Source: Escherichia coli (GTDB lineage: Bacteria > Pseudomonadota > Gammaproteobacteria > Enterobacterales > Enterobacteriaceae). From it: a stretch of DNA of 64,000 nt. The DNA is taken from assembly GCF_024502345.1 (NCBI RefSeq), contig NZ_JALDNN010000001.1; one strand, 5' to 3'. Both the position numbers and the translations under genes were made by a program. Below, one piece after another: positions 60,737 to 62,008 of this stretch (the first letter of the stretch is position 1; every line of letters starts with the position of its first letter). Below the pieces are notes generated by a model. That model was not told the origin of the DNA. It saw nothing but the letters and a program-made list of their open reading frames with translations, and did not search any database.

Positions 60737-62008
60737 GTGGTTATAGCTTCTACTTTTACCAGCGACACATTGCCTGCCGATCACAAAGCAGCTATCCGTC
60801 AGATGAAGCACGCGCTGCGGGCGCAGCTTGGCGACGTCCAGCAGATCTTTAATCAGCTAAGCGATGACATTGCCACGCGAGTGGCTGAAATCAACGCACT
60901 CAAAGCACAGGGCGATGCCGTCTGGCCGGTGCTGTCTTATGCCGATATCAAAGCAGGTCATGTTACTGCAGAGCAGCGCGAACAGATTAAACGTCGCGGT
61001 TGTGCGGTGATAAAAGGCCATTTCCCCCGCGAACAAGCGCTAGGCTGGGATCAGTCGATGCTGGACTATCTGGACCGCAACCGCTTTGACGAGGTCTACA
61101 AAGGCCCCGGCGATAATTTCTTCGGGACGCTCAGCGCTTCACGTCCCGAGATTTACCCCATCTACTGGTCGCAGGCGCAAATGCAGGCCCGCCAGAGTGA
61201 AGAAATGGCGAATGCGCAGTCGTTTCTCAATCGTCTGTGGACATTTGAAAGTGATGGAAAGCAATGGTTTAACCCGGATGTGAGCGTCATCTACCCTGAC
61301 CGTATCCGCCGCCGTCCGCCCGGAACGACCTCCAAAGGTCTTGGAGCGCATACCGACTCCGGGGCGCTGGAACGCTGGCTGCTTCCAGCGTATCAGCGCG
61401 TTTTCGCCAACGTCTTTAATGGCAATCTGGCGCAATATGATCCCTAGCATGCGGCACATCGTACGGAAGTTGAAGAGTACACGGTGGACAACACCACCAA
61501 ATGTTCCGTGTTTCGGACATTCCAGGGCTGGACAGCGCTCTCTGATATGCTGCCTGGTCAGGGGTTGCTGCACGTTGTGCCCATTCCTGAAGCCATGGCG
61601 TACGTACTGTTACGTCCGCTGCTTGATGATGTGCCGGAGGATGAACTGTGCGGCGTAGCGCCCGGAAGAGTGTTGCCGGTATCAGAGCAATGGCATCCAC
61701 TGTTAATTGAGGCGTTAACCAGCATTCCAAAACTCGAGGCCGGAGACTCCGTCTGGTGGCACTGCGACGTCATCCATTCCGTTGCCCCCGTTGAAAATCA
61801 ACAGGGTTGGGGCAACGTGATGTACATTCCTGCGGCACCGATGTGCGAGAAAAATCTTGCCTACGCGCACAAGGTGAAGGCCGCACTGGAAAAAGGCGCA
61901 TCGCCGGGCGACTTCCCGCGCGAGGACTATGAAACAAACTGGGAAGGACGCTTTACGCTTGCCGACCTCAACATTCACGGTAAGCGAGCGTTGGGCATGG
62001 ATGTTTGA
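60737..62008 (+). pseudogene. ybiU: DUF1479-family protein YbiU with an in-frame TAG stop (possibly also missing its ATG start)
   Basis: ORFs 60737..61447 and 61484..62008 share one frame and are separated only by TAG at 61445..61447; the position where the K-12 start is expected (60743) reads ATA here. Confidence 0.8.

Follow-up and report, generated by a model that had tools for sequence, protein, structure and literature searches.

Two independent G-to-A transitions in Escherichia coli ybiU and the predicted loss of the YbiU protein

An Escherichia coli ybiU gene that reads ATA where its start codon is expected, and TAG further into the same frame, raises the question of whether it can still give rise to YbiU, and of how both changes came to lie in one gene. 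The gene lies on a stretch of 64,000 nucleotides, referred to here as the window. A sequence-only reading of the window had taken the ybiU product to be 421 aa long, which places its start at 60743. The reference gene has exactly this length: MG1655 ybiU, b0821, occupies 857796-859061 and comprises 1266 nt, or 421 codons and a stop, a span equal to that of the window frame 60743-62008, which closes with TGA at 62006-62008. Over these 1266 nt the window is collinear with b0821 at 99.2% identity and 0 gaps, begins with ATA and contains 1 internal stop. The gene order ybiW-ybiV-ybiU-ybiT is that of K-12 in reversed orientation, and PF07350 matches both halves of the frame; synteny, identity and domain content thus identify it as the ortholog of intact ybiU over its full length. 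We conclude that ybiU is very probably a pseudogene here, by two independent G-to-A mutations in an otherwise unchanged IAI1-type allele. The locus is laid out as follows.

57198-59630, plus strand: ybiW
59776-60591, plus strand: ybiV
60599-60619, plus strand: terminator-like hairpin just 3′ of ybiV, an 8-bp stem with 6 GC pairs followed by TTTCCCTTCT, found by consensus scan only
60631-60659, plus strand: sigma-70 promoter-like site, TTTACA-17-AATCAT, in the ybiV-ybiU spacer, with 9 of 12 matches (weak evidence)
60743-62008, plus strand: ybiU, very probable pseudogene (DUF1479, Pfam PF07350, Gig2-like), with a Pfam match and no indels relative to K-12 b0821
62249-63841, minus strand: ybiT

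The terminator-like hairpin after ybiV suggests that ybiU is transcribed from a promoter of its own. The number of sigma-70-like sites in the ybiV-ybiU region is no higher than in shuffled sequences. Polarity on any downstream gene would not be expected, given the hairpin after ybiV and the convergent orientation of ybiT. A search of 59000-64000 against Rfam at the gathering threshold found no RNA family, and a riboswitch, leader or sRNA as another reading of the ybiU 5′ region was ruled out on this result.

The spacer between ybiU and ybiT (62010-62248) contains REP-like palindromic repeats (gcctgatgcg...cgcatcaggc). In IAI1 and MB07011 this spacer also holds an insertion of IS621, a member of the IS110 family (L001 3205-4185; L025 3348-4328), which the window does not have; the alignment of the window to IAI1 breaks at 62101. 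On the other side of the locus, ybiW is 97.6% identical to K-12 and so markedly more diverged than its neighbours ybiY (99.9%) and ybiU (99.2%). Its 3′ half has many clustered synonymous differences from K-12 and differs there from IAI1 too. The divergence of ybiW suggests a history of mosaic recombination across the locus.

Several lines of comparison bear on where ybiU translation normally begins. Structures of E. coli YbiU are available in the PDB (2dbi and 2dbn; 2csg has also been solved), and for the PDB entry of the Salmonella protein the alignment to E. coli YbiU begins at residue 1 of the latter. Citrobacter freundii orthologs open with MAFTFTSDT, aligned with MASTFTSDT in E. coli, with the methionine at the same position. 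As judged by alignment, an ATG at the position of 60743 is the conserved ybiU start. The window letters aatGAGAGGTGgttATAgcttctact / AATGAGAGGTGGTTATAGCTTCTACT instead give GTG at 60737-60739 and ATA at 60743-60745. The changes and the remains of the frame are these.

60743-60745, plus strand: ATA in place of the ancestral ATG start (G60745A), which is ATG in MG1655 and IAI1
61445-61447, plus strand: premature amber codon TAG replacing Trp235 TGG (G61446A), from base comparison; RefSeq records an "internal stop" for the same change elsewhere
61484-62008, plus strand: remnant C-terminal ORF of 174 aa from a GTG, with the latter half of the domain and weak Shine-Dalgarno pairing (-3.6 kcal/mol, 12-nt gap)

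In an ungapped base-by-base comparison from ybiV through ybiU, the window and IAI1 differ at 5 positions, and 2 of these, 60745 and 61446, lie inside ybiU. The IAI1 gene is the closest intact allele, and the window gene is the IAI1 allele with two changes. At both positions the window has A while MG1655 and IAI1 both have G, so that ATG to ATA and TGG to TAG are, on this comparison, derived G-to-A transitions. Each change is also found alone in other genomes, and the two lesions are therefore independent events. The earlier reading had suspected just this, namely an ATA at the expected start and two independent inactivating point changes, both explicable as G to A; the reference starts with ATG at the homologous position, the substitutions are as it proposed, and inactivation of ybiU is what the two together predict. 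The comparison with the MG1655 5′ end, on which it had staked the claim, came out in its favour, since the reference starts neither at the GTG nor at ATA.

The amber codon would leave YbiU with 234 of its 421 residues and about half of its single PF07350 domain. It removes 187 residues, corresponding to Pfam profile positions ~212-408. The N-terminal fragment covers profile positions 5-211 of 408 and the C-terminal remnant positions 226-408 of 408, so neither fragment is a complete domain. No NCBIfam model matched the YbiU fragments; Pfam does match them. Together with the loss of the canonical start codon, for which no adequately placed alternative was found, we infer that the YbiU protein is lost.

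To place the two changes among other strains, we used diagnostic 60-mers and 34-mers to find genomes with ATA or TAG among 5426 complete E. coli genomes, 4308 of which match the ybiU region (by megablast, from the 3′ end of ybiV through ybiU). The exact ATG 60-mer occurs in 2745 of the complete genomes. Like MG1655 and IAI1, nearly every one of some 4,000 complete genomes reads ATG at the start and TGG at codon 235. ATA was present in 5/5426 (BUCT2930, CFS3292, PC6, LZYWN_4 and SX12), TAG in 4/5426 (PI24, MB07011, UCPROB-001 and UCPROB-002), and both together in 0/5426; likewise, no complete genome among the 5426 was identical to the window in the ybiU region. A single-base difference from thousands of genomes might be taken as a sequencing or assembly error in one record. 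The double allele, however, recurs in five independent assemblies, L017-L021, drawn from one NCBI genome assembly, one ENA metagenome assembly and three independent Logan read-set assemblies, and ATA by itself occurs in five complete genomes. This refutes an error, the chance of which we put at practically nil. Three of the assemblies, L018, L020 and L021, match the window without a difference, L018 (GCA_050022275.1) over 9,198 bp, and all contigs bearing the exact 214-aa product of the double mutant read both ATA and TAG. The double allele is natural, common to a small lineage, and no error. The recurrence of the double allele in independent assemblies likewise led us to reject an artificially introduced change. 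JGI metagenome contigs gave no exact match to a 36-nt probe for the ATA allele. RefSeq already contains each of the single alleles, and public assemblies already contain the double one.

Whether the frame can still be entered depends on the signals around the lost start.

60732-60739, plus strand: Shine-Dalgarno sequence GAGAGGTG serving the native start at 60743 and ending in the GTG at 60737
60737-60739, plus strand: in-frame GTG inside the Shine-Dalgarno sequence, the sole upstream alternative, judged a poor start

In the 20 nt that precede 60743, GAGAGGTGG forms a duplex of -8.3 kcal/mol with the 3′ tail of the 16S rRNA. With the change of ATG to ATA, a strong and correctly spaced Shine-Dalgarno sequence would now precede a near-cognate codon with roughly 1-2% of the activity of AUG. 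In published reporters, AUA, together with AUC, AUU and CUG, initiates at ~1-2% of AUG (bioRxiv 10.1101/063800), and on that basis the change in ybiU can be regarded as a severe down-mutation that falls short of a complete null. Some initiation at ATA or GTG may remain. The GTG at 60737 had been called the only in-frame alternative. This holds for upstream starts, since an in-frame TGA at 60731-60733 leaves no other; it does not hold overall, as TTG 60770 and ATG 60803 exist downstream, although their Shine-Dalgarno pairing is negligible (-0.2 and -1.0 kcal/mol). The same reading had noted that the GTG has essentially no spacing from GAGAGG, and our calculation agrees: the 20 nt before it offer an anti-Shine-Dalgarno pairing of -2.7 kcal/mol with a 1-nt gap, which is no usable spacing.

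Could the GTG nevertheless take over as the start, lengthening the product by two residues (MVI-ASTF...)? The codon is a canonical start in the right frame, and no stop intervenes before 60743. Its position inside GAGAGGTG, the Shine-Dalgarno sequence that serves 60743, makes it a poor rescue start, with -2.7 kcal/mol at a 1-nt gap the best pairing upstream of it; being part of the Shine-Dalgarno sequence itself, it would be unable to compensate for the lost ATG. In a gene-call collection of 15 billion proteins the GTG-initiated 236-aa product has no record, and the gene callers chose ATG 60803 instead. Products from 60770, 60881, 60929 and 61007 were also absent from this collection, which among the products looked up holds only those of 214 aa (from ATG 60803), 129 aa and 234 aa. 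The 214-aa product, from ATG 60803 to the TAG, was called by gene callers limited to ATG, GTG and TTG. A product started at the GTG would in any case still be truncated by the amber codon, and we regard a takeover by the GTG as very unlikely. We are less dismissive of the ATA itself as a genuine weak start that lowers expression without killing the gene, so that ATA carriers still make some YbiU. The reporter values and the strong Shine-Dalgarno sequence still standing at the correct distance speak for it, as does RefSeq, where ATA is the start of an intact 421-aa ybiU in BUCT2930, CFS3292, LZYWN_4 and SX12. In the window, however, the amber at 61445 truncates whatever initiates at ATA; the near-universal ATG of other genomes, found in Citrobacter too, argues against a conserved regulatory feature; and two of the five ATA-only genomes bear an additional change, a frameshift in one and a missense change in the other, as relaxed constraint would allow. 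On balance this reading is somewhat unlikely, and we retain that of a gene inactivated by two mutations.

Two E. coli genes, infC and pcnB, naturally initiate at AUU, and in them the unusual codon is conserved and regulatory. The ybiU start resembles theirs in that an AUN codon, near-cognate and preceded by a good Shine-Dalgarno sequence, is usable at a low level and discriminated against by IF3. It differs in that the ybiU ATA is rare and derived (5/5426, with ATG in MG1655 and IAI1) where a regulatory non-AUG start would be conserved across strains, and in that the frame downstream is not intact but broken by the amber at codon 235.

We then listed the variable sites between the end of ybiV and the end of ybiU and compared the haplotypes on which each change occurs. 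The five ATA-only genomes have the MG1655-type allele and, counting the ATA itself, depart from MG1655 at 1-3 positions in 5,060 bp; PC6 is excepted from this figure, as an additional 1-bp deletion shifts the ungapped comparison. The ATA-start alleles of BUCT2930, CFS3292, LZYWN_4, SX12 and the frameshifted PC6 thus share with the window the change of ATG to ATA and its Shine-Dalgarno context, and differ in their K-12-type haplotype and in having kept Trp235. With ATA on two unrelated backgrounds, either the change would have arisen twice or it would have moved in a tract shorter than ~1 kb; an independent origin in the window is the probable one. TAG lies on at least three ybiU haplotypes, namely that of the window and L009, that of PI24, MB07011 and L012, and a divergent one in UCPROB-002, and the L016 assembly has TGA at the same codon (235). 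The RefSeq "internal stop" alleles of PI24, MB07011 and UCPROB-001/002 have the same change of TGG to TAG at codon 235 and the same ybiW-ybiV-ybiU-ybiT synteny as the window; unlike the window, which adds ATA, these genomes keep ATG and carry TAG on other haplotypes.

Which of the two changes came first can be read from these haplotypes. Assembly L009 has ATG with TAG on the exact ybiU haplotype of the window. L019, which has ATA with TAG, shares the ybiV haplotype of L009 and is equivalent to L009 with ATA added. As many as 170 contigs carry the 234-aa product of the ATG-TAG allele, and only 5 the 214-aa product of the double mutant. These observations make it probable that the amber came first and the start-codon change second, in a gene that was already dead; the latter would have accumulated without cost, ybiU being no longer under selection. 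This order is one of parsimony over a limited sample, and either mutation could have been transferred between backgrounds in a short recombination tract. Had ATA instead come first on the IAI1-type background and silenced ybiU, the amber would have followed at a site that is a hotspot, where it could easily arise second, and ATA-only alleles do occur in nature. Yet every ATA-only genome seen is K-12-type; an IAI1-type allele combining ATA with TGG was not seen among the haplotypes compared, and the allele that does exist on the window's own haplotype is ATG with TAG, by far the commoner on contigs. We consider ATA first to be unlikely, and keep to the order of amber followed by start loss.

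The amber codon has a recognizable sequence context.

61443-61447, strand not assigned: ancestral Dcm site CCTGG, now CCTAG (IAI1 context ATCCCTGGCATG)

The second C of CCWGG is a hotspot for G:C to A:T changes through deamination of 5-methylcytosine, lesions that are repaired by the very-short-patch pathway. G61446 pairs with the second C, the methylated base, of the bottom-strand CCAGG, so that the change to TAG is a G:C to A:T transition at the second-cytosine pair of an ancestral CCWGG site. Deamination of 5-methylcytosine to thymine at CCTGG/CCAGG that escaped very-short-patch repair would turn TGG (Trp235) into TAG. Recurrence of TAG on independent backgrounds, at least three haplotypes, fits such a hotspot, and TAG presumably arose by deamination at this Dcm site; the dcm gene lies outside the 64-kb window. 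Like the classical amber hotspots of lacI and other Dcm hotspots, the site combines a G:C to A:T change at the second cytosine pair of CCWGG, the creation of an amber codon and occurrence on several backgrounds. It differs from them in that the cause here is deduced from sequence context and recurrence, and in that the ybiU start change falls outside any Dcm site: the context of ATA, GGTTATGGCTT, contains no CCWGG, and the change is a plain G-to-A transition.

From the 3′ end of ybiV through ybiU, 1118/5426 complete E. coli genomes (~21%) are without a megablast match. A further 211 complete genomes match the ybiU region only at 60-80% identity. By this measure, the gene is not universally present in E. 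coli. The gene-call collection has 499 blocks with split ybiU products, and the y-ome paper gives ybiU as an example of a gene with no information. The gene appears dispensable, with which the missing match in ~21% of genomes, the lack of a known function and the split products are all compatible. In the window, 47 K-12 genes could be aligned, and 45 of them are intact with normal starts, the exceptions being ybiU and pdeI; ybiU is the only one of the 47 with a non-canonical start or an internal stop. The decay is thus specific to the gene and not part of a genome-wide erosion. A Shigella-like genome with general gene decay had been considered, given the presence of IS1 and of no 100% match among complete genomes, and was rejected on the same count.

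The double-mutant ybiU is a case of ordinary decay of a dispensable gene. Start loss or nonsense accounts for 4.3% of the possible transitions in ybiU, and both differences between the window and IAI1 within the gene are disrupting, a figure calculated post hoc; also post hoc, two random disrupting mutations among the aligned genes would fall in the same gene with a probability of ~0.027. Both figures would fit relaxed constraint following a first hit, and at best they are a faint sign that loss of ybiU was selected and did not come about by purely neutral decay. With ATA on two unrelated haplotypes, TAG on at least three, TGA on another and both window-IAI1 differences disrupting, one could argue that ybiU is under recurrent, possibly adaptive, inactivation in E. 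coli, or else that the K-12-like ATA allele is naturally attenuated yet functional. We hold this to be distinctly improbable beside the ordinary decay of a dispensable gene. What the locus documents is such decay, a nonsense mutation at a hotspot followed by loss of the start codon, and its wider significance is small. Natural strains with ATA only, with TAG only and with both changes do, in turn, provide ready loss-of-function or knock-down backgrounds for assigning a function to YbiU.

The single alleles are treated differently in RefSeq. The ATA codon lies at locus position 2528-2530 in L003, L004, L023 and L024 (BUCT2930, CFS3292, LZYWN_4, SX12), and the DNA of L003 and L004 was confirmed to read ATA at the ybiU start. 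WP_000168797.1, the protein accession of ATG alleles, is also given to the ATA genomes BUCT2930, CFS3292 and LZYWN_4; SX12 has WP_187230532.1, and PC6 ybiU, also ATA, is annotated as frameshifted. The three TAG genomes that we inspected, PI24, UCPROB-002 and MB07011, are annotated as pseudogenes with an "internal stop". Because the NCBI pipeline accepts ATA as a start and reuses the accession of the ATG alleles, start-loss alleles can go unseen in protein-level comparisons in RefSeq. Callers restricted to ATG, GTG and TTG instead shorten ybiU to the 214-aa product.

Elsewhere in the window, a copy of IS1 lies inside pdeI (yliE) at 43917-44684, with remnants of pdeI on the minus strand at 44685-46722 and 43597-43916. 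An exact IS1 terminal repeat occupies 44662-44684 and an InsB-like ORF 43932-44435, and the element is flanked by nt 1-2038 and nt 2030-2349 of K-12 pdeI, whose 9-bp overlap is the target duplication expected of IS1. Between ybjQ (11534-11857) and ybjP (14476-14997), an AT-rich insert of ~2.5 kb (~11900-14450) is absent in MG1655. Its 599-aa ORF (12068-13867, minus strand) gave no NCBIfam match and only weak matches to pentapeptide-repeat families in Pfam. Next to the insert, ybjP shares only 88% identity with K-12 and fails to align at its 5′ end.
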